Source: a virus. Taken from it: a stretch of 64,000 nt of DNA. How positions within the stretch are numbered: position 1 is the stretch's first letter; every line of letters starts with the position of its first letter. Below the pieces are notes generated by a model. That model saw nothing but the letters and a program-made list of their open reading frames with translations. It ran no database searches and was not told the origin of the DNA. Below, in pieces: positions 1 to 19,189 of this stretch. The stretch lies in IMG/VR virus record IMGVR_UViG_3300025381_000001. One strand, written 5' to 3'. A program made the position numbers and the translations under genes.

Positions 1-185
1 GCCTTTTTCTCCTTAAAATCATCGACTGCGATGCAGCCACGTTCTCGACAGCCCTCGTCCATGTCGGGCAAGAACTCATCGAGCGCCTTGTAAATCTTCT
101 CGCGCAACAAAGACGGTGAAGCATGGTTCAGTACGGCTATCTCCATCAGCGTGTTGACCAGCGGCCTTGCTTGTTCGTACCTCAT
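1..185 (-). CDS. hypothetical early protein, N-terminal 61 codons only (C-terminus lies beyond window start)
   Basis: ATG at 185 is preceded by GGAGAAGG and has an ATGA overlap with the stop of 182..345. The frame stays open to position 1 (MRYEQARPLVNTLMEIAVLNH...). Confidence 0.5.
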   Translation of the reverse strand, partial: MRYEQARPLVNTLMEIAVLNHASPSLLREKIYKALDEFLPDMDEGCRERGCIAVDDFKEKK

Positions 186-345
186 ACCTTCTCCGGTTGT
201 GTTTTGACGCGACCAAGATCGACCCACAGCTTCATGGCGTTTGCACAGTCCCGCTTTGACCACTCTGGTAGGCTTTTATATTGCGAAGCCAGACTCGGCC
301 AGTGCGCAATGTAGGCTTCAAACTGTTTTTCCCAGTACTTCATAC
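182..345 (-). CDS. hypothetical small protein (54 aa)
   Basis: The internal ATG at 345 has an AGGAGAAGG SD just upstream. The longer track version (to 370) lacks an SD. ATGA-coupled to the next gene. Confidence 0.5.
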
Positions 346-570
346 CTTCTCCTTGAGGGGCAAGCCCCATAGTTTGTAGCCAGCACAGTCCGTGTGGGTG
401 TACTTGCCATCGTTACCAACAGCGTTGGGTAGTAGCGCGTGCGCTTGAGGGTGTTTGTCGTGGCCTGGGAAGCCGCCAGACTCGCAGATCGTGCCAAGCC
501 TTGAACGCAGTAATGCTCTGTGTCCCTCGGGCGTTGTTGGTTTGCATGGGCAATGCGAGCAGGGCGTCAT
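340..570 (-). CDS. hypothetical Cys/His-rich small protein
   Basis: ORF track entry with an ATGA overlap to the stop of 567..755. Contains a CSHCPC motif plus further Cys/His residues. Confidence 0.5.
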   Translation of the reverse strand: MTPCSHCPCKPTTPEGHRALLRSRLGTICESGGFPGHDKHPQAHALLPNAVGNDGKYTHTDCAGYKLWGLPLKEKV

Positions 571-755
571 GGTTTATCCCTGCGCTTGAGTCCCGCTGGG
601 TCGCTGGCTAGGTTGACAGCATCAACGACTTGACGCTTGACTTCCTCCGCAACATTTTGGGGTGGTTGTTTACCAAAGATGCGCTCGAAACTTTCCGCAA
701 ACTTTTGGTGATCTGTTGGGCGTTGCGTGTCGCCCTTGCCTGCTTCATGTGCCAT
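567..755 (-). CDS. hypothetical small protein (62 aa, starts MAHEAGKGD)
   Basis: TGATG overlap with the stop of 755..949. The upstream part of the 129-aa track ORF is G/R/A-rich and looks out of frame. Confidence 0.5.
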   Translation of the reverse strand: MAHEAGKGDTQRPTDHQKFAESFERIFGKQPPQNVAEEVKRQVVDAVNLASDPAGLKRRDKP

Positions 756-949
756 CAGTCCGCATCCTTTGCTAAACAAGCGAACGCCTTGGGCAAGCCC
801 ACTGCTCCTTTGACTTCTTCCTGCCGCGCCACCAGCACAGCCGCCGCCTTGTTGCACAGCGCTCGGGATTTGAACTCGTCCACCTTCTCCCAGTTCAAGT
901 TGCCACCAGCGTTCATTTGAAACACTACCAATACGAATGCACCAATCAT
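755..949 (-). CDS. hypothetical small membrane-anchored protein
   Basis: Hydrophobic N-terminus MIGAFVLVVF. ATGA overlap with the stop of 946..1368. Confidence 0.5.
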   Translation of the reverse strand: MIGAFVLVVFQMNAGGNLNWEKVDEFKSRALCNKAAAVLVARQEEVKGAVGLPKAFACLAKDAD

Positions 950-1368
950 TCTTCATCTCCCATTAATTTCAATCCCTGCACGATATGAAGAGCCAAGGTC
1001 ATCAGCTTACTGACTGCTTTGTCCTTCCAAACTTTCTTTTCTTCTTCTGTCTTGAGCCCCCATTCGCCGTCCAAAATGGCTTGCAGCGTGTCGCAAACAC
1101 TACATGAACCATATCCAACTTTGACGTACCAGTAAGTGCTTGGCTGATAGATTGCCGCACCAATCACATACAACAATGTGCCTTGGTAGTCGCCGTCATC
1201 AATCTGGTGAATGCGTTTTGGATCGGGGGTTTCGTATTCACCTTCATCGTTCAACATCTCCACCACAGCAAGAACAATGTCGCTGTAGCTGCTTGGCAGT
1301 TTGGCTTCAAACTTTTCTTGAACTGAATCTTTGCGTTCAAACCAGCGTTTTGTAAATTTCTCAATCAT
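946..1368 (-). CDS. hypothetical protein (140 aa)
   Basis: Clean ORF in the coupled early operon with protein-like composition (GYGSCSVCDTLQ motif). Confidence 0.7.
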   Translation of the reverse strand: MIEKFTKRWFERKDSVQEKFEAKLPSSYSDIVLAVVEMLNDEGEYETPDPKRIHQIDDGDYQGTLLYVIGAAIYQPSTYWYVKVGYGSCSVCDTLQAILDGEWGLKTEEEKKVWKDKAVSKLMTLALHIVQGLKLMGDEE

Positions 1369-1697
1369 TTCTTATCTCCTTTTAAATAAAAATCATGTTC
1401 GGCAAGGGCTTGCTTCACATCATCTAAACACCTGCGGCCAAAGTTTGGGATGACCAACAAGTCGCGTTCGCGCATATCGAGTAACTGCCTGACCGTGTTG
1501 ATTTTCTCGGCACGCAAACAGTTGCTAGTACGCACAGTCAACAATAGGCAGTCAATGTCTTGCGACAACAACGGCGCTTGGTGTTCTTCCATTGCGATCA
1601 TGGTGCGATCGGGGATGACTGCGACCCACAACGTATCCACTTTGTTGAACTCCACGTGCTGCCCCAGTAGCGCGTAGACTTTTTTGTTTTCGTCCAT
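1365..1697 (-). CDS. RNA polymerase alpha-subunit C-terminal domain (alpha-CTD)-like protein
   Basis: LLLTVRTSNCLRAEKINTVRQLLDMRERDLLVIPNFGRRCLDDVKQAL aligns by eye with E. coli RpoA CTD [48 protein letters not shown]. Confidence 0.75.
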   Translation of the reverse strand: MDENKKVYALLGQHVEFNKVDTLWVAVIPDRTMIAMEEHQAPLLSQDIDCLLLTVRTSNCLRAEKINTVRQLLDMRERDLLVIPNFGRRCLDDVKQALAEHDFYLKGDKK

Positions 1698-1703
1698 GTG
1701 TCC

Positions 1704-1892
1704 TCAGTTCTTTGAAAAGTAATACGCCAAGCCAATCCAGATCACCAGCGCCGCGTAGCCCATGAGCACGTTGCGCCAGCCGTTGTTTTGTTCGGGTGGA
1801 TAGAACCACCCAGCTTGGTCGATGGAGTTGGGGAAGGCTTCTTGTAGGGTGCGTGGGTAACACCGTGTGGTTGGGTTTTTGTCTTCGATCAT
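1704..1892 (-). CDS. hypothetical small membrane protein
   Basis: ORF with a C-terminal TM segment (VLMGYAALVIWIGLAYYF). ATGA-type overlap with 1889..2149. Confidence 0.55.
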   Translation of the reverse strand: MIEDKNPTTRCYPRTLQEAFPNSIDQAGWFYPPEQNNGWRNVLMGYAALVIWIGLAYYFSKN

Positions 1893-2149
1893 TGTTCCCT
1901 CGCTTTCAGCATTGCGTCTGCGTAAATGTATTTGGCTTGTTCGCGTGTTCTTTTCGTTGGCATTTTTGTTGGCTCAGGTTTTCCCGTTGCAACCGAAAAA
2001 TAAAAACCATCGACCATTTGAGAATAATCATTGATGTACTGCCGTACATCCTCATCAGTTGCCTTGGCCGCGAAGTAATCACGCAGGGTCATGCCGTTGT
2101 AGCAAACATCGTTTGTTGGAAACGCTGGCCCACCTGTTTCTTTTTCCAT
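1889..2149 (-). CDS. conserved phage hypothetical protein (GGPAFP...GMTLRDYFAAKA type)
   Basis: The N-terminal GGPAFP and GMTLRDYFAA motifs recur in many prophage small proteins, as far as I recall. Confidence 0.65.
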   Translation of the reverse strand: MEKETGGPAFPTNDVCYNGMTLRDYFAAKATDEDVRQYINDYSQMVDGFYFSVATGKPEPTKMPTKRTREQAKYIYADAMLKAREQ

Positions 2150-2220
2150 TTCAATTTCCTTTCACGCAGAGTACCTGCTTGAGTTGATGAACGACCTCAT
2201 CTTGAATTACTTGTTTCATC

Positions 2221-2853
2221 TCAACCCTTAAAAATGTCTTTGAGCAAGTCGAACAACTGACGCGCTTGCACGACAGTCAACTTATTCACCACGCCCTCGG
2301 CTGTCCAGTTGCGAGTAAGCACGATCGACACAGGAGCCTGCGCCTCTTGCTTCGCACCAGTATCGACAGTCAACGCGGCAATGCCTGCTGATTTCTTTGT
2401 GGGCTTCTTGATAGCTTTGGCTGCTTTAGCGCTTTTGATCTTCTTGGCAAGGCTGTACGTCTTGTACTCTGTACCCACTGCATGAAAGCCACCCTGCACA
2501 TCTCGCGTCATCAATCCCACGCGCAACATTTGATAGATTAACGAGTCGGTGGAGTTGGTCTTGTACCCGCGCTTGAGCAGTGCTTCCACGATGTCTTTGC
2601 CCTTCAATCCGGGATTGTCTCGAACGAACTCGAAGGTGGCGCGTGTCACGCCGTTCTTTTCTTGGAAGCGGTGGGTTTGTTTGGTGGTGATGGTTTCAGT
2701 TGTTTGCATAGTGTCTTTCGATTGGGGTTGAGGTTGGGTTGATTGAAGCGTCTTGTTGTCCTCGTCTTCCCACTGTTTGAGTGTGACGGCAAGGTTGTTT
2801 TCGAATCCGCGATTGAGTAGTGCGGTGCTCAGTGCAGTTTGTAGATCAGGCAT
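2221..2853 (-). CDS. hypothetical protein, possible winged-helix DNA-binding region
   Basis: ORF with an AGGAGAAAG SD and its own sigma70-like promoter upstream. The central FEFVRDNPGLKGKDIVEALLKRGY segment looks wHTH-like. Confidence 0.65.
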   Translation of the reverse strand: MPDLQTALSTALLNRGFENNLAVTLKQWEDEDNKTLQSTQPQPQSKDTMQTTETITTKQTHRFQEKNGVTRATFEFVRDNPGLKGKDIVEALLKRGYKTNSTDSLIYQMLRVGLMTRDVQGGFHAVGTEYKTYSLAKKIKSAKAAKAIKKPTKKSAGIAALTVDTGAKQEAQAPVSIVLTRNWTAEGVVNKLTVVQARQLFDLLKDIFKG

Positions 2854-2879
2854 TGCTTTCTCCTAGTTAAGGTTTGGGA

Positions 2880-2908
2880 AATATATCCGAATCGGCTGAG
2901 GTTGTCAA
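2880..2908 (-). promoter_or_regulatory. sigma70-type promoter (TTGACA-17-TATATT) for 2221..2853
   Basis: On the minus strand TTGACA sits at 2908-2903, followed by a 17-nt spacer and TATATT at 2885-2880, about 25 nt before the SD. Confidence 0.55.
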
Positions 2909-2964
2909 CCGATGGACAAGAGAGGGGTAAGTTAGTGGTTGCTTTCGCTCCAAGCTTTTAGATT

Positions 2965-2983
2965 GGGGGTCGCGTTGACCCCC
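2965..2983. repeat. early-arm palindrome copy 1 (GGGGGTCgcgtTGACCCCC)
   Basis: Inverted repeat 16 nt beyond the stop of 2999..4060. It is followed by the motif TTGACACCCGTCA, which overlaps that stop codon. Confidence 0.85.
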
Positions 2984-2998
2984 AAAGATTGACACCCG

Positions 2999-4060
2999 TC
3001 AAACGAGCGCGGGTACTTTCGATGGTTGGTACGCCCAGTTCAGATGCCAACACATGACTTCCGCAACAGTCTCGGGGTCGTTACGCACGAAGTCGTGCAT
3101 GGTGGCTATGTCGTTGTCCAGACACGCCGCGATCACCTCGGCCTCGAAGTCATTTGTTGCGTTGTGTGTTGTCAACGTGGCCTCGAATGTACCCATAATG
3201 ATGTTGATACAAGTTATAGGCATCTCATCGAAGTACGCCGACAACAGTTCTGCATCCGCTTGCATCAGCGCGTCACCAAGCTCGTATGCGAAAGGCGCTT
3301 CTATCTTTGATTCTTGTTTTGCAAACTCGTTGTCAGTCATAGCGTGGATGCCCTTGGTCGATGTGAACTCGGTGCCAGCACTAGACCATGAGCCGATGAT
3401 CTCCTCATCCTCATCCCACATCTCGTAGCCATTGGAGAGATGACCATGCCACGCACGCTTGGTTGACTTGTAGTAGTTGGGGATGAGTTTGCTTGGCTTC
3501 CATGCGTAGGTATTGCTGAACCACATACCGTCATGCTCAACGCCTTGGTCATAGTTGACGTGGCTGATGCGCCCCTCGCCATTCATGAACACAAAGCGAT
3601 TGTCGCCAATGAACTCGGCCACCATTGTCAAGAAGCCTTTGTCGTACACGATGTCGGGATACTTCACTACGGTGTCATGCAGGTAGTCCTTGATGAAGTG
3701 ATACGTATCGCTACGCGCCGTGTCTGCCGCGTTACCTGTGTGCAGTACGCCGTTGTGCATCATTGCAATGAAGCCTGGCACTACGTCATAGGGATGGCAG
3801 TTGCTCAAGTCGGTGTGGCCGTGTGTAGTCCAGCGGAAGTGAATCGCCAGATCACGGTCGTCTTGCGGCATACGCTCGATCATGTTGCGTGCCTCGCCAA
3901 TGTTCTTGGGTAAGAACTTGTTGGCCTTGAGACCCTTGGATGTGCCGTACATGATGCCGATACCGTCAGGGTTGGAGGAGTAGATATCCGCAAGCAAGCC
4001 GTGAGTGTCCAGCAAGGTTGAACGGATTTTGTTTGATTGACCAGAGATGATTAAACACAT
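2999..4060 (-). CDS. Ntn-hydrolase / class-II glutamine amidotransferase-like (YafJ-type) protein
   Basis: Starts MCLIISG, so Cys follows the initiator Met. Also has DGIGIMYG, HFRWTTHGHTDLSNCHPY and MMHNGVL motifs in the typical class-II GATase order. Confidence 0.7.
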   Translation of the reverse strand: MCLIISGQSNKIRSTLLDTHGLLADIYSSNPDGIGIMYGTSKGLKANKFLPKNIGEARNMIERMPQDDRDLAIHFRWTTHGHTDLSNCHPYDVVPGFIAMMHNGVLHTGNAADTARSDTYHFIKDYLHDTVVKYPDIVYDKGFLTMVAEFIGDNRFVFMNGEGRISHVNYDQGVEHDGMWFSNTYAWKPSKLIPNYYKSTKRAWHGHLSNGYEMWDEDEEIIGSWSSAGTEFTSTKGIHAMTDNEFAKQESKIEAPFAYELGDALMQADAELLSAYFDEMPITCINIIMGTFEATLTTHNATNDFEAEVIAACLDNDIATMHDFVRNDPETVAEVMCWHLNWAYQPSKVPALV

Positions 4061-4074
4061 GATGATTTTCCTAG

Positions 4075-4266
4075 TTAGAAGTAGTTTGGGTTGAAAGGGG
4101 TGAGAGTGCTGTAGTAAAGCTGGCCGTTGGCGTCACGCGATACTGTGTAGGTGAGTGAACTGTGGTCAACACGAGGTGAGGGCTGGTTCAGCATTTGCAT
4201 ACGAATACGATTTGCTGCGGCATTAACTGCCGCGTCAAAGTGACCCCCGTTGGGCACGTTGCACAT
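4075..4266 (-). CDS. hypothetical small protein (start uncertain)
   Basis: ORF between the amidoligase and the GATase-like gene. It overlaps the amidoligase 3' end, and an alternative ATG at 4200 is possible. Confidence 0.4.
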   Translation of the reverse strand: MCNVPNGGHFDAAVNAAANRIRMQMLNQPSPRVDHSSLTYTVSRDANGQLYYSTLTPFNPNYF

Positions 4267-6082
4267 CACGCGACTCGGTAGTCACAGGCTCGGGCGCAGG
4301 GGTTACGTCTTCGCAGGTTGTGGCCGTTGCTTCCTTGACGCGCTTGCTCAAGCCATACCATTTGGCAAGGTTCGAGTACGCATTGTTGGTAGTCTTGAGC
4401 CATGCAACAAACGCTTCACCGTTCAAGTCACGCCACGATGCTGTGCGACAGAACATCACGACCGCATGAGTCCACTCGATCTGTGCAAGCAATCGTTCTT
4501 TCTTGAGCGAAGCCCTGAAGATACGAAGCTCGATAGTGTCGTAGCCACGGCGGTTGTAGTTGTCCTTGAGGCCTAGTCGGTTGCACTCGGAGCCTGTCAG
4601 GTTGTTCGTGTTAATCATGCGATAGCGTTGATCTGACTTACCCTTCAACGCCTTGCTCGGGTTGGTGAGGATGTCTTGATGCTCGGCGGCGCAATACTCA
4701 CGCGCTTGGTTGTCGCGGTTTGGATGACGACCTGCGATCTGGCGCACAAAGTCTGCGTTTGACTCGGCGTTGATGAACATGAAAAACTTACCGAGCGTCA
4801 GCTTGGAGAAGCCATGCGAGTCGATGTGGATGTGCATACCGCAACGCTTGGCATCCCATGCCCGAAACCCTTGTGGCACAACCCAGTCCTTGAACTGCTC
4901 GATGTGATGAGCCAGTCGGCGCGGTGCAGTCACGATCTCTAAGCCGTCGTCAGGCAAAGAGCCGTCATACTTACACACCACATAATCCTCGCCCAAGGCA
5001 GAGCGAATCTTGGATACCGCATCGCGCTTGTAGTTGTCCTCCCCTACGCCAATCTCCAACTCGATGCCCATGAGCAAGTCGCTGTAAGGTGTTGGCGTGA
5101 ACGATGTGTCTCGGTTCAGATGGTCGAGCACGTTGGTCGAGTAGTCCATGAGGGCGCTGGGATCACCATCGTCTCCGTCTTCGTCAGCCTCGTCAGAGTC
5201 ACGGTCATAGGAATAATACGCATCGTGGTTGTCGCTCCAGTACGCATCGTCACGCGACCAGTACTCGTTTCTATCCTCTACGAATACAGCATCATCACGG
5301 AAGCACGCATCGCACCACGTATCGTCACGCACATCATGCGTCTCGCCTGTGTACTCCATGTGGCCGCAGTCACAAACTTTTAGGTCGGTGTACAAACCCT
5401 TATCGTCTAAGAAGTCTTTAACACGGTCAAACCAATCGGATAGACCGTTTTGCACAGTCATGTTTTCATAGTGCTCGTGTATCCAGTCGTCAAACACAGA
5501 TACGTCATCGTCTGCAACGGCTTGCTTGATCGCGTTGTGACACGCGGCTGTAACAGCTTGTCTGTGCTTGTAGTCCGCCGCAGAGTAGGACATGGTGCCT
5601 TTGTAGACTGCATATGGGCGTGGTTTGTCGAGGCGCTCTCTCATCTGCCGCGTGACACGGCTTATGAATTTGTCCACAGGGCCAACGGTGTTCATGTACA
5701 TACGGTCAAATAACTTGATCTTGACCCCCAAACCTTGCTCGGGGTCACTAAGCCAACGCATTTGAATGGGCGTCAGTTCGGTGACTTGCAGGTTTTCGCT
5801 AGTGATATGGCCGTAGTGGGTATGTATAAAATCTTCTGGACTTTCTTCTGTGCTTGCACTCAGCACGTGCAGGTTTTCTGGGTTGAAACGGGTAGCGCGG
5901 TTTGTGAACAGCGAGGTTCTACGGTTTGTGGTCGATGTGCTTGCGTACAAGCCTGCATAGATTTTGCGGTGGCTTTGGTCATTTCTGATTTCGATTTGCT
6001 CTGCGATGAGCACCGTGTGCGATCTCCGTTTTGGTGTATCGAAAGAATCATTGGTTTGAAAGGTTGCGAAATAAAGTTTCAT
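4235..6082 (-). CDS. glutamine-synthetase-like amidoligase (Amidoligase_2 family) with long N-terminal extension
   Basis: ATG at 6082 has an AGGAGAA SD. The C-terminal half carries GIELEIGV, DGSLPDDGLEIVTAP, GMHIHID, RYRMIN and TIELRIFRASL motifs. The N-terminal half has CDCGH..CDAC and a poly-acidic run. Confidence 0.7.
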   Translation of the reverse strand: MKLYFATFQTNDSFDTPKRRSHTVLIAEQIEIRNDQSHRKIYAGLYASTSTTNRRTSLFTNRATRFNPENLHVLSASTEESPEDFIHTHYGHITSENLQVTELTPIQMRWLSDPEQGLGVKIKLFDRMYMNTVGPVDKFISRVTRQMRERLDKPRPYAVYKGTMSYSAADYKHRQAVTAACHNAIKQAVADDDVSVFDDWIHEHYENMTVQNGLSDWFDRVKDFLDDKGLYTDLKVCDCGHMEYTGETHDVRDDTWCDACFRDDAVFVEDRNEYWSRDDAYWSDNHDAYYSYDRDSDEADEDGDDGDPSALMDYSTNVLDHLNRDTSFTPTPYSDLLMGIELEIGVGEDNYKRDAVSKIRSALGEDYVVCKYDGSLPDDGLEIVTAPRRLAHHIEQFKDWVVPQGFRAWDAKRCGMHIHIDSHGFSKLTLGKFFMFINAESNADFVRQIAGRHPNRDNQAREYCAAEHQDILTNPSKALKGKSDQRYRMINTNNLTGSECNRLGLKDNYNRRGYDTIELRIFRASLKKERLLAQIEWTHAVVMFCRTASWRDLNGEAFVAWLKTTNNAYSNLAKWYGLSKRVKEATATTCEDVTPAPEPVTTESRDVQRAQRGSL

Positions 6083-6112
6083 TTGAATTCTCCTAGTTGA
6101 TGAAAAACATTT

Positions 6113-6129
6113 GGGGTCAGCTTGACCCC
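6113..6129. repeat. early-arm palindrome copy 2 (GGGGTCAgctTGACCCC)
   Basis: Lies between the stop of 6159..6491 and the amidoligase start. The CTGACACCCGTCA motif overlaps that stop codon. Confidence 0.85.
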
Positions 6130-6158
6130 TAAAAACGTCAGTAAGGGACTGACACCCG

Positions 6159-6491
6159 TCACTTTGTGATCTCCTCTCTTTCTTTTGGGTTACACGATTT
6201 GCATTGGTGGTCGTAGGTCTGCTCGTACTCCTGCGCTTCTTTATGCGTGTCGAACATATGTTCTTCTCCGCACTCGAAACATGGGTAGCACCACGTTGGT
6301 TCTGAGCCTTCGCTACCAATGAAGATACACGCGCTCCATCCTTCGTCATACACATACACATTGCCCGAGTTAGGGTTGATACCTGCGTCTGTGTACCTAG
6401 TGGTGGTCAAGCCTTCGGCCTCTAGCTTGGTGATGCACTTGATGAGGCGGCGCAGTTCGCGCCCGTGAAATTTCTCAAAGAAGTTTTCCAT
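6159..6491 (-). CDS. hypothetical protein with C-terminal zinc-ribbon-like Cys pairs
   Basis: GGAGAA SD. Contains CYPCFECGEEH...CKSC. Confidence 0.65.
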   Translation of the reverse strand: MENFFEKFHGRELRRLIKCITKLEAEGLTTTRYTDAGINPNSGNVYVYDEGWSACIFIGSEGSEPTWCYPCFECGEEHMFDTHKEAQEYEQTYDHQCKSCNPKEREEITK

Positions 6492-6671
6492 TTAGTTCTC
6501 CTTTCTGTTAGTTTTCACAACCACCGTCTCGCCTGTGCGTGTTTGGTATCCCAGCGCGTAGTCGTTGGCTATGCGGTACTTGTTAGTCACCAGCAACAAC
6601 TCACCGTCTTGCGTGTACACGCGGTACTCAAACCCTTCAATGGGTTGGTTGGTACTCGTTTCTTGACTCAT
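6492..6671 (-). CDS. hypothetical small protein (59 aa)
   Basis: The ATG at 6671 is chosen because the longer track ORF would run through palindrome copy 3. Its stop abuts the next gene's start. Confidence 0.5.
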   Translation of the reverse strand: MSQETSTNQPIEGFEYRVYTQDGELLLVTNKYRIANDYALGYQTRTGETVVVKTNRKEN

Positions 6672-6740
6672 ACAATTCCCTTTCGGCCAGCTAGTACAGG
6701 CAGGGAGCGCGGCGCGGCTAAACCATGCGCTCCCCGATTC

Positions 6741-6757
6741 GGGGTCACGTTGACCCC
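6741..6757. repeat. early-arm palindrome copy 3 (GGGGTCAcgtTGACCCC)
   Basis: 17 nt beyond the stop of 6774..7577. The TTGACATCCGTTA motif overlaps that stop codon. Confidence 0.85.
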
Positions 6758-6773
6758 TAAAAATTGACATCCG

Positions 6774-7577
6774 TTAAAGGCGTTCCAGAATGGTTGGCGT
6801 TTGCGCGAACTCCTCGCGTGTCAGGTAGTACCCACTCCATGTTGGCGGCAAGGCTTCGCCTTCCTCGGCGTCACGTACCCACAACAACACCTGCCTCATC
6901 TTGGCAATAGAGTCTTCGTGCTTGGCTATGCGCTTGCGTATGGCGGCGCTCTTGTCTTCCATCTTCATCATGCGGATAGCGAGCAGGTCGTGCTCGGCTT
7001 TAGCCAACTCTAGTTCTGTGCGTTTTTGTAGCTTGTTGCGTTTGTCGCGCCAGCCCTCACCCTTGGGTATCGTGCGCTCGAAGGGCGTCTTGCGTTTGGC
7101 GTATTGCTTGTACGGTATGGCATCGAACAACGCACGCACCTCGGCCTTGTCGCTCTCGGATACCCAATCGACCCAGTGGTGGCCTTTGTTGGGAATAGGA
7201 ATTCCCTTGCGCTCTAGCTTTTCTCGTAGCTTGGAAGGCACAACGCCATGCTTGCGCCGCGCAAGAGTCAGCACCCCGAGCAGTTCGCGCAGTACTTCGG
7301 CGTACCTATCCAATGCTTCTTGGCGTGGGATATCTTCGGTGTTCGTGCAACGCATACGCTCGACAATGCGTAGTTCATGCTTGGCGGGGTCAATGATTGG
7401 CGCCCACAATAGGTCGTGTTGTATCCGCGTGATGCGCTCGGTTCGCAGTTTGCGTTGTTGTTCGGCCACAGTTTTCATGATGGTTTCAATCACGAGGGGT
7501 GGTTTCTTTTGTCGGGTCAGGTGGGTGAGCAATTCGTTTTGCGTCATACCCATATATTGCCTGTGCTTGTAGTACAT
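6774..7577 (-). CDS. hypothetical protein (267 aa, basic, coiled-coil C-terminal part)
   Basis: ATG at 7577 has an AGGAGA SD 7 nt upstream. Long ORF; no domain recognised. Confidence 0.7.
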   Translation of the reverse strand: MYYKHRQYMGMTQNELLTHLTRQKKPPLVIETIMKTVAEQQRKLRTERITRIQHDLLWAPIIDPAKHELRIVERMRCTNTEDIPRQEALDRYAEVLRELLGVLTLARRKHGVVPSKLREKLERKGIPIPNKGHHWVDWVSESDKAEVRALFDAIPYKQYAKRKTPFERTIPKGEGWRDKRNKLQKRTELELAKAEHDLLAIRMMKMEDKSAAIRKRIAKHEDSIAKMRQVLLWVRDAEEGEALPPTWSGYYLTREEFAQTPTILERL

Positions 7578-7646
7578 CAGATATCTCCTGTTAAAAAACA
7601 ATGTCGGGCAAGTATAGCAGGTATTGGGGCTGGATACCGCAAAGTA

Positions 7647-7896
7647 GACAACACTTCGGACACGCCAAAATCCGCATGGTTGCTAGGTTTCTTGCAAAAA
7701 GTGTCCAACTTTATATCGTTTAAAAACAATACTAATGGGTTTAAAGGTTAAGCCAAGGTTAGCCAAAGACAAAGGACAACAAACAAATAAACACTTGTCT
7801 ATATATATGAATATACTTTAATAGATATTATATTAGGACACGCTTTAACCTAGAGCCAATGCCCATGCGGGTTGCCGCGTGTCCGAAGTGTTGTCC
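7647..7896. repeat. large imperfect inverted repeat flanking an AT-rich core
   Basis: 19-nt perfect arms (GACAACACTTCGGACACGC at 7647-7665, reverse complement at 7878-7896). Further matched blocks are CCGCATGG/CCATGCGG, CTAGGTT/AACCTAG and GTGTCC/GGACAC. The AT-rich core is about 7707-7835. Confidence 0.85.
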
Positions 7897-7900
7897 AATG

Positions 7901-7942
7901 TGCGATATCCACTCCTACCTTGATTTTTAGGGATATCGCACC
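7901..7942. repeat. 11-bp inverted repeat GTGCGATATCC...GGATATCGCAC
   Basis: Perfect 11-bp arms separated by 20 nt, immediately next to palindrome copy 4. Confidence 0.8.
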
Positions 7943-7946
7943 TTTT

Positions 7947-7964
7947 GGGGTCAGGTTGACCCCC
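7947..7964. repeat. early-arm palindrome copy 4 (GGGGTCAggtTGACCCCC)
   Basis: Lies 2-3 nt beyond the TAA stop of 7967..8197. Confidence 0.85.
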
Positions 7965-7966
7965 AA

Positions 7967-8197
7967 TTAGCACAGCTTCATTTGAATGGGAGCTTGCATC
8001 TTCTCTAGCCATGCTTCGAAGGCGGCTTCACCACTCAAGCATAGGCCGCGTGAACTGTTCTTGCGATAGACGTTGACAAGAAAGAAGTCGGGTTGTGCTT
8101 TGCCTTTGGGGTAGTAGTACATGACGTTGTATTCGCCGTGGATAGGGAAGGTGAACGTGCCCATGTGTTCGATTGTGGGTTGTGTTGTATTGCGCAT
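7967..8197 (-). CDS. hypothetical small protein
   Basis: ORF track entry with protein-like composition, within the early operon. Confidence 0.6.
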   Translation of the reverse strand: MRNTTQPTIEHMGTFTFPIHGEYNVMYYYPKGKAQPDFFLVNVYRKNSSRGLCLSGEAAFEAWLEKMQAPIQMKLC

Positions 8198-8206
8198 GAT
8201 GAGTCC

Positions 8207-8383
8207 TTAGAATTCGTTGATTAAGAGGGTGAGAACCGAGCCGAGGAGGAATGGGCAACCAATGGTGAGAGTGAGCCAAAGGTAGCCGCCCTCGTATTGA
8301 GCAAGGCCAGAGACGCCAACAGCCAAGCCGAATAGAAGTGTTGTTATTGCCAGCGAATAGGCCAGCGCGAGTTTGGAAGTCAT
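8207..8383 (-). CDS. hypothetical two-TM membrane protein (58 aa)
   Basis: ATG at 8383 after GAAAGG. Two hydrophobic spans (LAYSLAITTLLFGLAVGV and LTIGCPFLLGSVLTLLI). Confidence 0.55.
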   Translation of the reverse strand: MTSKLALAYSLAITTLLFGLAVGVSGLAQYEGGYLWLTLTIGCPFLLGSVLTLLINEF

Positions 8384-8393
8384 GGGATACCTT

Positions 8394-8588
8394 TCAGGTC
8401 GTGCGTTTGGGGTTAAGTTGAGAGAGCATGGCAAGGTCAGTCACCATGATGTAGTTTGATTTGTTCAGGGGAACAACAGTGTGGCGGCGTTGTTGCGCGT
8501 GGGTTTCGCCGCAGGATAGGCAGAGTTTGAAGCCCAACGCCCAGCGTTGTGGGCGCACGGCATCGCCGCATTTTGTGCAGTGGTGCAT
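8394..8588 (-). CDS. C4 zinc-finger protein, TraR/DksA-type zinc-ribbon-like
   Basis: CTKCGDAVRPQRWALGFKLCLSC resembles the CxxCGxxIPxxR...CxxC pattern of TraR-family zinc fingers. No N-terminal coiled coil is present. Confidence 0.4.
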   Translation of the reverse strand: MHHCTKCGDAVRPQRWALGFKLCLSCGETHAQQRRHTVVPLNKSNYIMVTDLAMLSQLNPKRTT

Positions 8589-8621
8589 GGTTTACCTTTG
8601 TGCTTGACACGTTTTGGAACA

Positions 8622-8649
8622 GCGGCGCGGCCTCACATTCCCGCGCCGC
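8622..8649. other. GC-rich stem-loop (9-bp stem GCGGCGCGG/CCGCGCCGC)
   Basis: Intergenic between 8679..9083 and 8394..8588. A TTTT run follows on the plus strand only and the tract on the minus strand is weak, so its function is unclear. Confidence 0.5.
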
Positions 8650-8658
8650 CACGTTTTC

Positions 8659-8676
8659 GGGGTCAGCGTGACCCCC
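8659..8676. repeat. early-arm palindrome copy 5 (GGGGTCAgcgTGACCCCC)
   Basis: Lies 2-3 nt beyond the TGA stop of 8679..9083. Confidence 0.85.
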
Positions 8677-8678
8677 AA

Positions 8679-9083
8679 TCATTCAAACGACACCGAAGCC
8701 TTCAACGCCACGATAAAGGCATTGAATTCGGCCTTGGTCAAGCCTGCCGCGATAACTTCTTTGGTCACGCTAGACACCAATGCCTTGGGCGCGACAACCT
8801 TGCGTGATTGCGTGGGTGCTTTACCTTGGGGGCGGTTAGGGTGCAACTTGAGCAAACGCGTCATTTTTTGCTCAGGCGCGGATTCCTTGGTGAATGTGAG
8901 GTAGTCGCCTTGCTTGGACTTATGGGCTTTTACGGTGTAATGCTTTTCACAAACGGCCACGACAATGGCGCGGTATTCGTCAAACGTGATTCGCGCCGCC
9001 TCTGCCGCAATTTGGTCAACGGTGAGTTGTTGCTTGTCATCTGTTTTGAGCAGAGTGGTGATGAGAGTATTGAGAGTAGTCAT
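8679..9083 (-). CDS. hypothetical protein, first gene of leftward early transcript
   Basis: The ATG at 9083 is chosen because the longer track ORF would include palindrome copy 6. Protein-like composition. Confidence 0.6.
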   Translation of the reverse strand: MTTLNTLITTLLKTDDKQQLTVDQIAAEAARITFDEYRAIVVAVCEKHYTVKAHKSKQGDYLTFTKESAPEQKMTRLLKLHPNRPQGKAPTQSRKVVAPKALVSSVTKEVIAAGLTKAEFNAFIVALKASVSFE

Positions 9084-9105
9084 GATGTGTACCTTTAAAA
9101 GATTC

Positions 9106-9122
9106 GGGGTCAACGTGACCCC
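9106..9122. repeat. early-arm palindrome copy 6 (GGGGTCAacgTGACCCC)
   Basis: Located in the predicted 5' UTR, between the extended -10 promoter and the 9083 start. Confidence 0.85.
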
Positions 9123-9157
9123 ATAACGAACCAGAACCATTCCGATTCGTTACACTC

Positions 9158-9166
9158 ATTATAGCA
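9158..9166 (-). promoter_or_regulatory. extended -10 promoter element (TGcTATAAT), leftward early promoter candidate
   Basis: The minus strand reads TGCTATAAT (consensus -10 with a TGn extension) about 75 nt upstream of the first early gene. Confidence 0.5.
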
Positions 9167-9256
9167 TGAGGGGTAGAACTAAGGGCTACTTGGCGGCGTG
9201 GTAGCGGCGTAATCTTGGAACCAAAGACCCCACCGTACCCCCAGAACCCCCTTTTT

Positions 9257-9280
9257 GACCATGCCGACCATGAAACCATG
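9257..9280. repeat. three direct (G)ACCATG repeats with 9-nt period
   Basis: GACCATGccGACCATGaaACCATG, in the divergent control region. Confidence 0.7.
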
Positions 9281-9300
9281 AACACTGTTCCGTAACCACT

Positions 9301-9329
9301 TTGTAGATTTTTATAACTTTTTGTCTAAT
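9301..9329 (+). promoter_or_regulatory. candidate rightward sigma70-like promoter (TTGTAG-17-TCTAAT)
   Basis: Hexamers with 17-nt spacing in an AT-rich tract upstream of the tRNA island. Weak match. Confidence 0.3.
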
Positions 9330-9395
9330 GACCCTACCCACAAACTTTTTATAAAAAATCCAAACATCTCTTGTCAAACGGTGTACACTATGTTT

Positions 9396-9625
9396 GTTGG
9401 TGGGGGTGCTCTAGCGAAGCACAACCTGACAAGGGTAGGCAACTGGGTGCAAATCCCAGACACCAACAACCAAGACGCATGAGGATTGGCTCCGAGAGTG
9501 CCGGAGCATAGAAGGGCAGTGCCCCCTACCAGTCCTCAGTCGTGTTGGTTGTGATAACCCGCCCCCGGCAGCGCGATTAAGTTCCGCGTGTGGCCACACC
9601 GCATAGTGAGTCGGGCCCAACCAAC
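9396..9625 (+). ncRNA. structured non-coding region made of three tRNA-sized closed helical modules (tRNA-like, non-canonical)
   Basis: Closing helices are GTTGGTG/CACCAAC (9396-9467), GAGGATT/AGTCCTC (9481-9537) and GTTGGTTG/CAACCAAC (9544-9625). Module 1 has a D-like arm (GTGC..GCAC) and a T-like arm (CTGGG-TGCAAAT-CCCAG). The overlapping ORFs look spurious. Confidence 0.35.
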
Positions 9626-9708
9626 AACTTTTAAGTATCCAACACGCCAAAATAAGTTTACAATCCGCAACATCATGAAAACCCCAATCCAACCGGAACC
9701 CAAGATCT

Positions 9709-9783
9709 CTGTGCGTAGCGCAGTGGTAGCGTTCTCGTTTTGGAAACGAGGGGTCGCTGGTTCGAATCCAGCCGCACAGACCA
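9709..9783 (+). tRNA. tRNA-Pro (anticodon TGG), CCA encoded
   Basis: Manual cloverleaf: acceptor CTGTGCG/CGCACAG (C1-G72), D arm GCGC-AGTGGTA-GCGT, anticodon arm CTCGT-TTTGGAA-ACGAG, T arm GCTGG-TTCGAAT-CCAGC, then A-CCA. Confidence 0.9.
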
Positions 9784-9810
9784 ATTTTCGATACTGATCA
9801 TCCCTGCAAC

Positions 9811-9895
9811 GGGGATGCGGCGCAGATGGTGAGGCGCGGCAGACTGTAAATCTGTTACTTCGGTTTAGTAGGTTCGATCCCAGTCATGCCAGCCA
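9811..9895 (+). tRNA. class-II tRNA-Tyr(GTA)-like gene with non-complementary 3' part (possible chimera or pseudogene)
   Basis: 85 nt. D arm GCGC-..-GCGC and anticodon arm GCAGA-CTGTAAA-TCTGT closely resemble E. coli tRNA-Tyr. The T stem (GTAGG/CCAGT) and acceptor (GGGGATG/CATGCCA) pair poorly. The 3' end CCAGCCA looks Gln-like. Confidence 0.5.
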
Positions 9896-9903
9896 ATAAA
9901 AAA

Positions 9904-9927
9904 GCCCCCGATATTTCTACCGGGGGC
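9904..9927 (-). terminator. intrinsic-terminator-like hairpin oriented for the minus strand
   Basis: GCCCCCG/CGGGGGC 7-bp stem. On the minus strand it is followed by TTTTTTATT. There is no U-tract on the plus strand. Confidence 0.45.
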
Positions 9928-10027
9928 GTCAAGGGTTTTACCCCAACTAGGAGACAAGCAATGGATTGCGCCACTGCAAAAGTGAGTGTACACTTGCGCC
10001 AACGGGAATGCAACCCGCAAGGACCAA

Positions 10028-10642
10028 ATGCTAGAACACCTGATTGACTTCATCCCACCTGTGGCTGCGCACGCGGCGCGGGGCACCATGCCTTTGGATA
10101 GGGCAGAGCCGGATGAAACGCTCAACGCACAAGTCAAGACAACCGAGTGGCTCGAACGCCTAGGCATCGTGGACGACAACGCCACGCTCAAAGAAGCCGA
10201 CGCCAACGCCGCCCGGAAAGTGTTCAGTGTGCTGGCCGGTACCGCGCCGGCAGCAGAAGCCAAAACCCAACTCACCCAACTCAAGACGCCAGAGGCTGTA
10301 CGCCATCTGGTCACAATGCTGTCCGCCTACGACTGGGAGTTCGTGGAGATGGCCAAAGAGTTGCGCGGCATGGCCGTGGCCAAAATCTTGGAAGAGACCA
10401 ATCACCCCGACGCACGCATCCGCTTGAAGGCGCTTGACATGCTGGGCAAGGTCACGGAGGTGGGGCTGTTCACCGAACGCATCGAGGTCAAGAAGACCGA
10501 GTTGCCCGACGCCGAGATCGACAAGAAGATCAAAGACAAGCTGGCCAAGTTCATGGGCGTCATCGACGCCAATGTGACCGATGTTAGTGAGCGCTCACCA
10601 ACAACCGTAGACCATGAAACTCAACGACCTGAATCTGACTGA
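10028..10642 (+). CDS. terS: terminase small subunit (putative)
   Basis: Lies immediately upstream of terL and overlaps it. ATG at 10028 follows AAGGA. The PDARIRLKALDMLGKVTEVGLF segment is typical of small-terminase helical cores. Confidence 0.6.
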   Translation: MLEHLIDFIPPVAAHAARGTMPLDRAEPDETLNAQVKTTEWLERLGIVDDNATLKEADANAARKVFSVLAGTAPAAEAKTQLTQLKTPEAVRHLVTMLSAYDWEFVEMAKELRGMAVAKILEETNHPDARIRLKALDMLGKVTEVGLFTERIEVKKTELPDAEIDKKIKDKLAKFMGVIDANVTDVSERSPTTVDHETQRPESD

Positions 10643-12164
10643 GGTCGAGATCAAGACCCTCCAGTTCGCGCTGCCCAAAATGTCGGGCGCGGAGAAGCTT
10701 GAGTTGTTGGAAATGCTGGAAGAGCGTGAGCGTCGCATGTCTCTGTCAAACGCTAGACTTGGCATGTTGGACTTTGCTAAACATGTGTACCCGGGATTTA
10801 AAATTGGGCCGCACCATAAGAAATTAGCAGGCATATTTACCGACGTGATCGAGGGGCGCAAGAAGCGCGTCATCATCAACATCGCGCCACGGATGGGCAA
10901 GTCCGAGTTCAGCTCCTACCTGTTCCCTGCTTATTTTTTAGGCAAGTACCCAGAGAAGAAGATCATCATGGGCACGCACACTGCGGGTCTGTCCGAAGAC
11001 TTTGGGCGGCGCATCCGCAACTTGATCGACTCAGATGAGTACCGCGAACTGTTCCCCAAGACGTTGGTGGCCGATGACCAAAAGGCGGCTGGCAAGTGGA
11101 GCACCGCTGCTGGTGGCCAGTACTACGCTGCGGGTGTGGGCGGCGCTCTTGCTGGGCGTGGTGCGGATTTGTTCGTTATTGACGATCCTCATTCTGAGCA
11201 GGACGTGAAGATCAACAGCCGCTTGGCCTTTGATACCGCGTGGAACTGGTTCCAAACTGGGCCGTTGCAGCGTTTGATGCCTAACGGGGCGATCATTGTC
11301 ATCATGACGCGCTGGAGTTTGATCGACCTCACTGGCCGACTCATTGACTACCAAACGCGCAACCCCGACGCTGACCAGTGGGAGATCGTGGAGCTGCCGG
11401 CCATCCTTGAGTCCGAAGACCCAGAGACGGGCGAGACCGTTGAGAAGTCACTCTGGCCAGAACAGTGGCCGCTGGAGCAGTTGAAGGCCAAACGCGCCAA
11501 CTTGGATCCCAAGTTCTGGAACGCCCAGTACATGCAACAGCCCACCTCCGACGCGGCGGCGATCATCTCAAGAAAGAGCTGGCGCATCTGGCCACAAGAC
11601 GACCCACCCCGCTGCGACTACATCATCCAGTCATGGGACACGGCGTTCGAGACAAAGACCAGCGCCGACTATTCCGCCTGCACAACGTGGGGCGTCTGGT
11701 ACAACGAGGAAGAAAACAACAAGGCGCAGATCATCTTGCTCGACGCCTTCAAAGCACGCATGGCCTTCCCCGAGCTAAAGCAGACCGCGCTCAAACACTA
11801 CAAGCAGTGGCAACCCGATGCGTTCATCGTGGAAAAGAAGGCCGCTGGCGCTCCACTAATACAAGAGCTGCGCAACATGGGCATCCCCGTGGACGAGACC
11901 AACCCTAGTCGTGGCAATGACAAGGTGGTACGATTGAATGCAGTCTCGGACTTGTTCGCCTCGGGCATGGTCTGGGCACCAGACACACGCTGGGCACGCG
12001 AGGTGATTGAAGAGGTGGCGTCATTCCCCAACGGAGAAAACGACGACTACGTGGATACCACATCGCAGGCATTGATGCGTTTTCGCCAAGGTGGGTTCAT
12101 TGCGCTGGACTCTGACGAGAAGGACGAACCTCTTTACTTCCGTCGCAAAGCAGCGTATTACTAA
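10614..12164 (+). CDS. terL: terminase large subunit
   Basis: Walker A IAPRMGKSE, Walker B GADLFVIDDPHSE, and a C-terminal RNaseH-like nuclease motif IIQSWDTAFETKTSADYSA. Confidence 0.9.
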   Translation: MKLNDLNLTEVEIKTLQFALPKMSGAEKLELLEMLEERERRMSLSNARLGMLDFAKHVYPGFKIGPHHKKLAGIFTDVIEGRKKRVIINIAPRMGKSEFSSYLFPAYFLGKYPEKKIIMGTHTAGLSEDFGRRIRNLIDSDEYRELFPKTLVADDQKAAGKWSTAAGGQYYAAGVGGALAGRGADLFVIDDPHSEQDVKINSRLAFDTAWNWFQTGPLQRLMPNGAIIVIMTRWSLIDLTGRLIDYQTRNPDADQWEIVELPAILESEDPETGETVEKSLWPEQWPLEQLKAKRANLDPKFWNAQYMQQPTSDAAAIISRKSWRIWPQDDPPRCDYIIQSWDTAFETKTSADYSACTTWGVWYNEEENNKAQIILLDAFKARMAFPELKQTALKHYKQWQPDAFIVEKKAAGAPLIQELRNMGIPVDETNPSRGNDKVVRLNAVSDLFASGMVWAPDTRWAREVIEEVASFPNGENDDYVDTTSQALMRFRQGGFIALDSDEKDEPLYFRRKAAYY

Positions 12165-15552: not shown

Positions 15553-15746
15553 TCCAAGAATTCGCTCGCGTATTGCGCGAAGAAATACGCAAAGACATGA
15601 ATAACTACACAGATGACATGGCAAATGGCATCTGCAAATCGTACGACCAGTACCAAAAACTCTGTGGTGTGATCCAAGGTCTTGGCATCGCAGAAGCTTA
15701 CATCATCGACCTTGCACTAAAAGTGGAGAAAGCAAATGACAAGTGA
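15549..15746 (+). CDS. hypothetical small head-module protein
   Basis: ATGA overlap with the portal stop. 65-aa ORF. Confidence 0.6.
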   Translation: MIQEFARVLREEIRKDMNNYTDDMANGICKSYDQYQKLCGVIQGLGIAEAYIIDLALKVEKANDK

Positions 15747-16173
15747 ATCAGGAATCATCCTGCCGCCCGGCCTGACGTTGCCCAAACAAATCCAACCAAT
15801 GGATGCGCCAAAGGACGACGAGACAGACGAACAAAAAGCCTCGGTTTTGCCGACCCCCGCTGGTCACAAAATCTTGTGCATGGTTCCGGATGTCAGCGAA
15901 AAAATCGAAGGCTCGGAGCTGTACCGTCCAACGGAGTACATGAAGCAGGAAGAGCAAGCGACAACCATCTTGTTTGTGTTGAAGCTGGGCAATGCGGCCT
16001 ATCTTGACAAAGAGCGTTTCCCCACAGGACCTTGGTGCAAGGCCGGTGATTTTGTGATGGTTCGTACTTATTCAGGTACGCGAGTGAAGATTTTTGGCAA
16101 AGAGTTCCGCGTGATTAATGACGATCAGGTGGATTGTGTGGTAGACGACCCGCGTGGCATTACACGCGCATAA
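15736..16173 (+). CDS. GroES/Cpn10-like co-chaperonin fold protein (putative)
   Basis: GGAGAAAG SD. The C-terminal KAGDFVMVRTYSGTRVKIFGKEFRVINDDQVDCVVDD aligns by eye with GroES [37 protein letters not shown], and an upstream PAGHKIL matches PLHDRVIV. Confidence 0.5.
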   Translation: MTSESGIILPPGLTLPKQIQPMDAPKDDETDEQKASVLPTPAGHKILCMVPDVSEKIEGSELYRPTEYMKQEEQATTILFVLKLGNAAYLDKERFPTGPWCKAGDFVMVRTYSGTRVKIFGKEFRVINDDQVDCVVDDPRGITRA

Positions 16174-16183
16174 GGAGTGAAAA

Positions 16184-17137: not shown

Positions 17138-17138
17138 A

Positions 17139-17594
17139 ATGACCACGACAAACCGCACACCTCGTGATTTAGTGTCACGCGAAAAATCAGCTCGGGCAGT
17201 CTATGTGCCGCCCTCAAACTTGCCTGATCCGACACCTAAGCCGGGTTATGTCTATCGCTGGATTGCCACCCATGTGATGGGACAGCACCAGCAACGCAAC
17301 ATCTCAATGAAGATGGGCGAAGGTTGGGTGCCAGTGAAGGCAGTTGACCATCCGGAGTTGATGCTTGTGGGAGATGCGTCAGGAAACGTTGAAATCGGCG
17401 GTTTGATGCTTTGCATAGCTGCAAAGGAAAAAATCGAAGCTCGCAACGAGTACTACGCCAACCAAGCTCAAAACCAGATGGAATCAGTGGACAACCACTT
17501 CATGAGAAATAGTGACCCACGCATGGCGACGTTGTTTGCAGAGAAAAAATCTTCAACGACTCGCGGTGTTGGGTTTGGTTCAGGTTCAAAGTAA
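17139..17594 (+). CDS. hypothetical head-module protein
   Basis: 151-aa ORF tightly packed in the head module (GYVYRWIATH..GEGWVPV motif). Function not recognised. Confidence 0.65.
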   Translation: MTTTNRTPRDLVSREKSARAVYVPPSNLPDPTPKPGYVYRWIATHVMGQHQQRNISMKMGEGWVPVKAVDHPELMLVGDASGNVEIGGLMLCIAAKEKIEARNEYYANQAQNQMESVDNHFMRNSDPRMATLFAEKKSSTTRGVGFGSGSK

Positions 17595-17608
17595 CAAGGA
17601 GTCCTTAA

Positions 17609-18220: not shown

Positions 18221-18230
18221 GGAGTAAATC

Positions 18231-19142: not shown

Positions 19143-19166
19143 TAAACTAAAAAGTTTATTAAAGTT

Positions 19167-19189
19167 AGGGGCTTCGGCTCCTTTCTTTT
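19167..19189 (+). terminator. intrinsic terminator after capsid gene
   Basis: AGGGGC-TTCG-GCTCCT hairpin followed by TTCTTTT. Confidence 0.75.

Follow-up and report, generated by a model that had tools for sequence, protein, structure and literature searches.

The 64,000-nucleotide stretch analysed here (IMG/VR virus record IMGVR_UViG_3300025381_000001; hereafter the window) is a tailed-phage genome, from an uncultured freshwater phage, and its minus-strand open reading frame (ORF) at 1365-1697, starting with the ATG at 1697, encodes a 110-aa early protein that joins a stand-alone copy of the C-terminal domain that the alpha subunit carries in bacterial RNA polymerase (RNAP), the alpha-CTD, to a novel 38-residue N-terminal module (N-module). 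The identity of the domain, its predicted fold and the retention of its DNA-contact surface were established for this protein, and the three lines of evidence that define alpha-CTD membership, namely profile, predicted fold and DNA-contact residues, agree. It is best described as a new, phage-borne architectural variant of a known domain.

The phage protein carries an alpha-CTD and is not a truncated alpha subunit

A first-pass annotation of the window had likened the C-terminal part of the protein to the E. coli alpha-CTD by eye and had called for a profile comparison and a structural superposition. The likeness was upheld by the profile, by the RpoA chains matched in the PDB and by the predicted fold. 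In the Pfam scan RNA_pol_A_CTD (PF03118) was matched at E = 2.7e-20, with 72.3 bits against a gathering score of 23.8, and query residues 37-100 covered model positions 4-67 of 67 (64 positions). A phmmer search against all PDB chains returned RpoA almost exclusively, with more than 50 such sequences; the top match was Francisella alpha1 (1.8e-11), and the E-values were ~3e-10 for the isolated E. coli alpha-CTD and 1.7e-9 for full-length E. coli alpha. Identity to RpoA was ~36-41% over 62-68 residues. Residues 41-102 aligned with E. coli alpha 250-311, segments of equal length, and E. coli numbers are given below as the query position + 209. The VR(S/T)xNCL segment with the DNA-contact arginine is indeed there as TVRTSNCLRAE, in which R56 corresponds to R265, and the PN(L/F)G(K/R) turn as PNFGRR, in which N85 and G87 correspond to N294 and G296. 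Alignment with 18 RpoA C-terminal fragments by hhalign covered residues 42-112 with probability 99.6 and E = 1.3e-23. These sequence comparisons confirmed that the protein carries what can be called a genuine alpha-CTD, with a match far beyond chance, and the word 'mimic' used in the first-pass annotation is a fair one for a stand-alone alpha-CTD with its DNA-contact arginine, as seen in sequence, profile and predicted structure.

The domain resembles the alpha-CTD of RpoA (PF03118; 1LB2, 3K4G, 3N97, 1Z3E) in profile, sequence, predicted fold and the equivalents of R265, N268, C269, N294 and G296. The protein as a whole differs from RpoA in several respects. No alpha-NTD (N-terminal domain; PF01193/PF01000) was found in it by Pfam, where PF03118 was the sole match, or by hhalign, and without that domain it cannot assemble into core polymerase as alpha does. 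Its length is 110 aa compared with ~310-350 aa, and its linker has ~8 residues compared with ~14 or more in alpha. The gene lies in an early operon, in a genome that also encodes terminase, portal and phage replication proteins, unlike the rpsD-rpoA-rplQ neighbourhood of rpoA, and the 261 and 287 determinants of alpha are not conserved. The protein is thus an alpha-CTD with a novel 38-residue module and not a truncated alpha subunit. A unique N-terminus of 45 aa had been proposed for it; an N-terminus outside the alpha-CTD does exist, but it comprises ~38-41 residues and is a conserved, foldable module shared by a family.

A family of 110-aa proteins shares the architecture

A first, word-indexed search with the single protein as query recovered only one cluster, 97% identical. 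An exhaustive HMMER search yielded 4,399 representative clusters at E<=1e-3, a handful of which matched the N-terminal region. When a five-sequence alignment was used as the query, 21 clusters of 109-113 aa scored 104-193 bits and the next scores were <=82 bits. These 21 clusters share the full architecture, an N-module with G12, F17, C/A26, M33 and P42 followed by an alpha-CTD, and the window protein has all the features of this 'N-module + alpha-CTD' family of ~110-aa proteins as defined here. A six-frame scan of the window with the family HMM found a single copy (139.7 bits), in the frame of 1365-1697.

All family members are metagenomic, and the longer contigs that carry them are phage-like: a 75-kb contig near-identical to the window (L001), a 63-kb contig with PolA, SNF2 helicase and DUF927 primase (L013), a 13-kb contig (L015) and a contig from IMG/VR (L010). 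Copies of the protein 97-100% identical to that of the window lie on at least five other metagenomic contigs, and the near-identical contigs were recovered from metagenome samples of JGI, ENA and Logan, one of them named TB18AUG2009E. A pattern-based scan of 185,579 bacterial and archaeal species genomes, one for each species, found no family member, only ordinary RpoA CTDs, and PHROGs v4 held no family that matches the 110-aa protein. Megablast of the first 6.5 kb of the window returned no cultured-phage relative, and tblastn against 50,697 phage records gave, apart from Roseobacter phage CRP-701, mainly bacterial rpoA from records that were contaminated or mislabelled. By terminase, the nearest cultured relatives, at ~50% identity, are freshwater phage DSL-LC04 and the Pelagibacter podophages HTVC027P and HTVC023P.

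The top of the exhaustive search was dominated by proteins of another kind, with 2-12 tandem alpha-CTD copies at 33-47% identity per repeat. P0002 has 12 repeats, P0003 has six and lies on a 1.87-Mb contig, and an ENA metagenome contig (L020, 2350-9096) carries three adjacent alpha-CTD-repeat genes of 119, 919 and 1031 aa, the last with 12 repeats. These multi-repeat proteins (P0002-P0150, L020) look like a large, apparently unstudied class; they show the alpha-CTD to be a mobile DNA-binding module. They are large tandem arrays, at least some of them chromosomal, and lack the N-module, unlike the 110-aa protein.

The predicted structure superposes on solved alpha-CTDs

We built an AlphaFold (AF2) model with a 22-sequence family alignment; a single-sequence run gave a pLDDT of 40. 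The model had a mean pLDDT of 89.6, with ~96 over residues 50-100. Predicted alpha-CTD helices lie at 48-51, 55-63, 69-73, 77-81 and 88-99, after a short linker. Foldseek searches of the PDB with the model matched RNA polymerase alpha alone, and superposition on the RpoA CTD, the second check that had been called for, gave root-mean-square deviations (rmsd) of 0.5-0.9 Å over 64 columns (0.5 Å for 8y5t_A2, 0.9 Å for 1lb2_E and 0.8 Å for 1z3e_B). TMt values against alpha-CTD chains, those of E. coli and B. subtilis included, were 0.91-0.94 (0.94 for 8y5t_A2). The model predicts a compact helical fold of two helix-hairpin-helix (HhH) units that is superposable on the solved alpha-CTDs.

The N-module is predicted to form strands at 5-10, 13-20 and 23-26 and a helix at 30-38, with a pLDDT of 78-88 over this block. 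Across the 22 sequences, conserved positions of the module are G12, F17, position 26, M33 and P42; position 26 is Cys in 20 of the 22 sequences and Ala in the window protein. Searched by itself, the N-module profile matched nothing among PDB sequences or in Pfam. The idea that the module is a remnant of the alpha-NTD, prompted by Foldseek alignments to full-length alpha that spanned 120-139 columns, was dropped when hhalign against RpoA fragments that included the end of the alpha-NTD aligned the CTD residues alone. We propose that the N-module serves as an oligomerisation or partner-binding element.

The DNA-contact surface is invariant and the protein-contact patches vary

We applied the E. 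coli offset to the 22-sequence family alignment and compared the functional surfaces of the domain. At the positions equivalent to R265, N268, N294 and G296 all 22 sequences carry the E. coli residue, although the subfamilies are just 26-40% identical to one another. The K297 equivalent is K or R throughout (22/22), the C269 equivalent is kept in 18 of 22, the S299 equivalent is T, C or S, and the K298 equivalent is R in 11 of 22, the window protein included. The window protein's '265 determinant' comprises R56, N59, C60, N85, G87, R89 and C90, and its presence, read from the sequence, provides a putative DNA-binding surface. The R56 codon was read directly as acg at 1530-1532, reverse complement cgt. 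The second hairpin, N85-C90, we take to be the DNA-backbone contact turn. The UP-element DNA-reading roles of alpha-CTD residues were reportedly worked out in the Gaal/Murakami/Benoff line of work. R265 of E. coli alpha makes the minor-groove contact to the UP element (PMC2988021; PMC3694059), and CRP and UP contacts both need it (PMC2988021).

The protein-contact patches gave a different picture. The 261 determinant (E. coli D258/D259/E261) reads D49/C50/L52, in columns that are highly variable across the family, and the 287 determinant (T285-E288 of T285-L289) reads R76-E77-R78-D79 and is also variable, one subfamily having a 3-residue insertion just before this patch. In E. coli the 261 determinant contacts sigma70 region 4 and the 287 determinant contacts CAP. 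Neither is conserved relative to E. coli alpha. Since the 265 determinant is invariant and the 261 and 287 determinants vary, a DNA-directed role is favoured over titration of class-I activators. Among copies that are 93-100% identical (L001, L007, L008 and L009), seven of the eight variable positions fall within residues 1-41, and the single CTD change is D92G.

The alpha-CTD gene is kept while the early region around it turns over

The gene lies in a leftward block of small genes that runs from a divergent intergenic region near 9.1 kb toward the replication module. It is ~7.4 kb into this block, and the L013 homologue occupies the same relative position. It is the fourth gene of a tightly packed, putative five-gene operon (Table 1). 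Its Shine-Dalgarno sequence falls within the end of the preceding 62-aa gene and its stop codon overlaps the start of the next gene (ATGA, 1365-1368); the gene has a good ribosome-binding site (RBS) and appears to be translationally coupled. The string of five genes is headed by a 145-nt gap with a sigma70-type promoter-like site (2908-2880), which is 1.2 kb upstream of the alpha-CTD gene and whose -35 element is not preceded by an A/T-rich UP-like tract; the number of sigma70-like sites in the region does not exceed the shuffled expectation.

By blastp of the early regions, L013, L010 and L006, which are distantly related, have the alpha-CTD protein as their only early-region protein in common with the window, L015 has it and one other, and no operon partner gene is conserved beside the homologues on these four contigs. 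These comparisons indicate either selective retention or repeated exchange of the alpha-CTD gene amid turnover of the remaining early region.

The first-pass annotation had stated that the phage encodes no RNA polymerase of its own in the window. This agrees with Pfam and PHROG scans of all ORFs of at least 500 aa and of many smaller ones, which detected no phage RNA polymerase or sigma factor; several small ORFs fall outside that set, and the related 75-kb contig extends ~11 kb past the window. Two large proteins were considered as candidates and rejected. The 2509-aa protein belongs to the LPD38 'polyvalent' type and showed neither a PDB sequence match nor an RNAP signature, and the 958-aa protein to the left of the window has no Pfam match and a weak PHROG match annotated 'endolysin'.

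Proposed competition for UP elements and the alternatives to it

Much of the promoter strength of rRNA genes and other highly expressed bacterial genes is set by the contact between the alpha-CTD and the UP element. We propose, with somewhat less than even confidence, that the phage protein is a DNA-binding competitor at UP elements that damps host UP-dependent promoters. It would be produced early, from the predicted host-type promoter, and would bind the minor groove of A/T-rich, UP-like DNA in the manner of the host alpha-CTD, while detached from RNA polymerase. Self-association through the N-module would probably add avidity, imitating the two tethered CTDs of the alpha dimer. With UP elements and alpha-CTD docking sites thus occupied, rRNA and other strong UP-dependent host promoters would lose the alpha-CTD contribution, and host polymerase would be biased to phage promoters that do not need UP elements, such as that at 2908-2880. 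The retained R265/N268/N294/G296 surface, together with the missing alpha-NTD, counts for a competitor. Further points in its favour are the promoter without a UP tract, the lack of a detected phage RNAP or sigma factor in the scanned ORFs, the retention of the gene across distant contigs, the concentration of changes among close copies in residues 1-41, the absence of any member from the bacterial and archaeal genomes scanned and the precedent of other phages that attack the same contact.

Several observations weigh against competition at UP elements. The predicted isoelectric point of the protein is near neutral (5.9; 8.0 for the CTD part; 5.4-8.9 across the family), which does not mark an obviously strong DNA binder, and half of the family has a hydrophobic residue at the K298 equivalent. 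The affinity of an isolated alpha-CTD for UP DNA is low, so the model leans on the proposed oligomerisation of the N-module. In E. coli the UP-binding surface also binds NusA-AR2, and conservation of the R265 patch is therefore not uniquely a sign of DNA binding. A census of A/T runs, taken as a proxy for binding sites, showed them to be depleted relative to shuffles across the window and without pattern, leaving no obvious target sites. The broader idea that some phages without their own RNAP take over host transcription through a self-associating free alpha-CTD, either as a UP competitor or as a 'third alpha-CTD', we hold to be doubtful at present.

The same structural evidence could also support an adaptor or activator, which we consider unlikely: the CTD would sit on A/T-rich DNA beside particular phage promoters or elsewhere on the phage DNA, and the N-module on host RNAP, sigma or a phage factor. 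On such a scheme, to which we give an equally low probability, a free 'third alpha-CTD' would recruit or stabilise polymerase at phage middle or late promoters and would not inhibit the host. Conservation of the N-module as a discrete folded unit (G12, F17, 26, M33, P42) fits a specific partner, and with no phage RNAP detected the late genes must use the host enzyme. Against this stand the lack of a conserved partner gene beside the alpha-CTD gene, the lack of a recurring A/T-rich motif upstream of the structural operons, and an N-terminal sequence that varies among near-identical phages, which would be unusual for an interface with a conserved host protein. The protein might instead be a decoy for host or phage proteins, titrating class-I activators, NusA-AR2-type partners, Spx-like regulators, or enzymes and defence factors that recognise or modify the alpha-CTD. 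We think this improbable, as we do its expected outcome, that host regulation is disconnected or the real alpha subunit is shielded. An authentic alpha-CTD, ~40% identical to proteobacterial ones, would suit such a role; the invariant R265 surface binds proteins in E. coli as well. R265 is required for CRP and UP contacts, and phage enzymes target it (PMC2988021). Yet the 261 and 287 patches, through which sigma and activators are contacted, are not conserved, and ~40% identity to any RpoA is not the close host copy that a good decoy would be.

Reuse of the alpha-CTD outside RpoA is widespread, as the 4,399 clusters, the tandem arrays and the L020 locus attest, and the phage protein could be a generic HhH DNA-binding accessory in replication, recombination, or genome condensation or protection, with no link to transcription and with the fold serving just for non-specific DNA binding. 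In Roseobacter phage CRP-701 the 197-aa alpha-CTD protein is encoded between two PD-(D/E)XK nucleases and SSB, and in L013 a distance of 2 kb separates the homologue from DNA polymerase A, to which it is upstream. This adjacency to replication genes is not kept in the window or in L015, and the invariant residues go beyond backbone-binding hairpin glycines to the sequence-reading R265 and N268; we judge a generic accessory to be distinctly improbable. That the gene is a decaying, functionless fragment of a captured host rpoA is scarcely credible. Close relatives do differ too little for a meaningful dN/dS, with 0-4 synonymous against 0-8 non-synonymous substitutions. On the other side, the length of 109-113 aa and the architecture are kept over ~21 clusters at 26-40% identity, the key residues are invariant, the gene has a good RBS and apparent translational coupling in an operon, and it persists where almost every other early gene is different; at ~40% identity to any RpoA, no recent capture is indicated. 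Conservation at the level of the family effectively refutes decay of an rpoA fragment.

Relation to other phage proteins and significance

Phage alpha-CTD proteins are already present in databases as a loose, uncharacterised set. In BFVD and UniProt, at least ten proteins of 105-135 aa from uncultured Caudovirales are auto-labelled 'RNA polymerase, alpha subunit, C-terminal' (for example A0A6J5NZM6 and A0A6J5MNY7), and others occur in Mycobacterium phage Mithril, Rhodococcus phage Finch and Roseobacter phage CRP-701 (gp9). Most of them align to the window protein over the CTD only (65-84 columns); the best BFVD match, A0A7T0M174, aligned over 100 columns with an rmsd of 9.8 Å. Lengths and flanks differ from those of the 110-aa protein, CRP-701 gp9 having 197 aa and the actinophage proteins 149 and 240 aa. 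Literature searches found no characterised phage alpha-CTD homologue.

Phages repeatedly target the interaction of the alpha-CTD with UP elements: T4 Alt and ModA ADP-ribosylate R265, and gp67 of Staphylococcus phage G1 blocks the contact via sigma (PMC2988021; PMC3694059). For the Rac protein of phiKMV-like phages, cleavage of alpha is reported (PMC7552054). By analogy, the proposed outcome would be similar, an early loss of the alpha-CTD contribution at host UP-dependent promoters. None of these proteins is related to the 110-aa protein in sequence or structure, and they are enzymes or sigma-binding proteins that act on polymerase, whereas the 110-aa protein, as an imitation of the domain, would have the DNA site or the partners of the alpha-CTD as its target.

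If competition at UP elements is borne out, a domain copy that competes would be a fourth route against this contact, beside modification, steric block and cleavage, and would represent a class of host-takeover factor without earlier experimental description. UP-dependent transcription could then be probed or damped with a simple, portable tool, and there would be a reason why so many ORFs in phage metagenomes are auto-annotated as 'RNA polymerase alpha C-terminal'. The system would be directly testable, with 110 aa, an obvious R56A mutant and standard rrnB P1 assays. Should the protein be merely a generic DNA-binding module, the result would be a routine domain annotation. The domain call is itself routine; UP-contact residues kept in a phage early protein turn it into a concrete and easily testable takeover hypothesis.

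Table 1 Features of the 64,000-nt window, with the basis for each where given
Feature	Position	Strand	Basis or remark
CDS, 110-aa protein (N-terminal module + linker + alpha-CTD)	1365..1697	-	ORF list, PF03118, family HMM
N-terminal module, residues 1-38	1584..1697	-	AF2 with family alignment; family-conserved positions
alpha-CTD domain, residues 42-102 (E. coli alpha 251-311)	1392..1574	-	Pfam, phmmer, Foldseek, hhalign
R56 codon (E. coli alpha R265)	1530..1532	-	direct sequence reading and alignment offset
Second hairpin codons N85-F86-G87-R88-R89-C90 (E. coli N294-L295-G296-K297-K298-S299)	1428..1445	-	family alignment
Shine-Dalgarno GAGGA	1701..1705	-	direct reading; 5 nt upstream of the alpha-CTD gene ATG
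Putative five-gene operon, tightly packed	946..2853	-	210 aa, 86 aa, 62 aa, alpha-CTD, 140 aa
Operon member, 210 aa	2221-2853	-	
Operon member, 86 aa	1889-2149	-	
Operon member, 62 aa	1704-1892	-	
Operon member, 140 aa	946-1368	-	
sigma70-type promoter-like site, TTGACA-17-TATATT	2880..2908	-	11/12; consensus match only
Hairpin copies (seven)	2966-2982, 4231-4247, 6113-6129, 6741-6757, 7947-7963, 8659-8675, 9106-9122		
tRNA calls (two), divergent intergenic region	9378-9467, 9709-9783	+	ARAGORN
Large terminase	10614-12164	+	
Portal	12925-15552	+	
Structural genes	through ~43.6 kb	+	
2509-aa LPD38 'polyvalent' protein	43639-51168	+	
DUF927 primase/helicase	51291-54194	-	
SNF2-type helicase	57109-58671	-	
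Exonuclease	59094-59759	-	
Family-A DNA polymerase	60057-62177	-	

Other observations in and beside the window

The first gene past the sigma70-like promoter encodes the 210-aa protein, for which no Pfam or PHROG match was found. A winged-helix-like segment, GLKGKDIVEALLKRGYKTNSTDSLIYQMLRVGL, and a Lys/Ala-rich, histone-H1-like tract, KKIKSAKAAKAIKKPTKK, can be picked out by eye, and the protein may be another DNA-binding early protein that is co-expressed with the alpha-CTD protein.

A hairpin, GGGGTCA-NNN-TGACCCC, occurs in seven near-perfect copies, compared with 0.08 expected by chance. The leftward early block contains all seven, at gene ends or between them and upstream of the alpha-CTD operon. 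Several are followed on the coding strand by a gAATcTTTT-like tail, and a TTGACGGGTGTCAAT-like palindrome precedes those at 2982, 6129 and 6757. They may act as leaky terminators, as sites of RNA processing or stability, or as promoters or operators of a hairpin type. An Rfam scan of 1-10700 found tRNA-Pro only and no known family for these repeats. Of the two ARAGORN calls, tRNA-Pro(UGG) was confirmed by Rfam (67 bits), and the 90-nt 'tRNA-Ala(AGC)', without Rfam support at E<=0.1, is doubtful.

The LPD38 domain of the 2509-aa protein is near its C-terminus, at residues 2219-2395, and the gene comes after that for a 681-aa virion protein with a transglycosylase domain; the 2509-aa product may be an injected multifunctional protein. 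On L001, at 14646-20333 and thus beyond the left end of the window, the early-gene strand carries a second packaging-like module made up of a 120-aa ORF resembling a small terminase, a large terminase of 479 aa (Terminase_6N; PHROG terminase matches) and the 958-aa protein, which suggests an assembly chimera or an unusual second terminase. Two further minus-strand early genes encode a 353-aa protein with a weakly glutamine-amidotransferase-like N-terminus (2999-4060) and a 615-708 aa protein with an Amidoligase_2 domain (4235-6361). The pairing of a glutamine amidotransferase with an amidoligase occurs in other phages, where modification of peptides or metabolites has been proposed.

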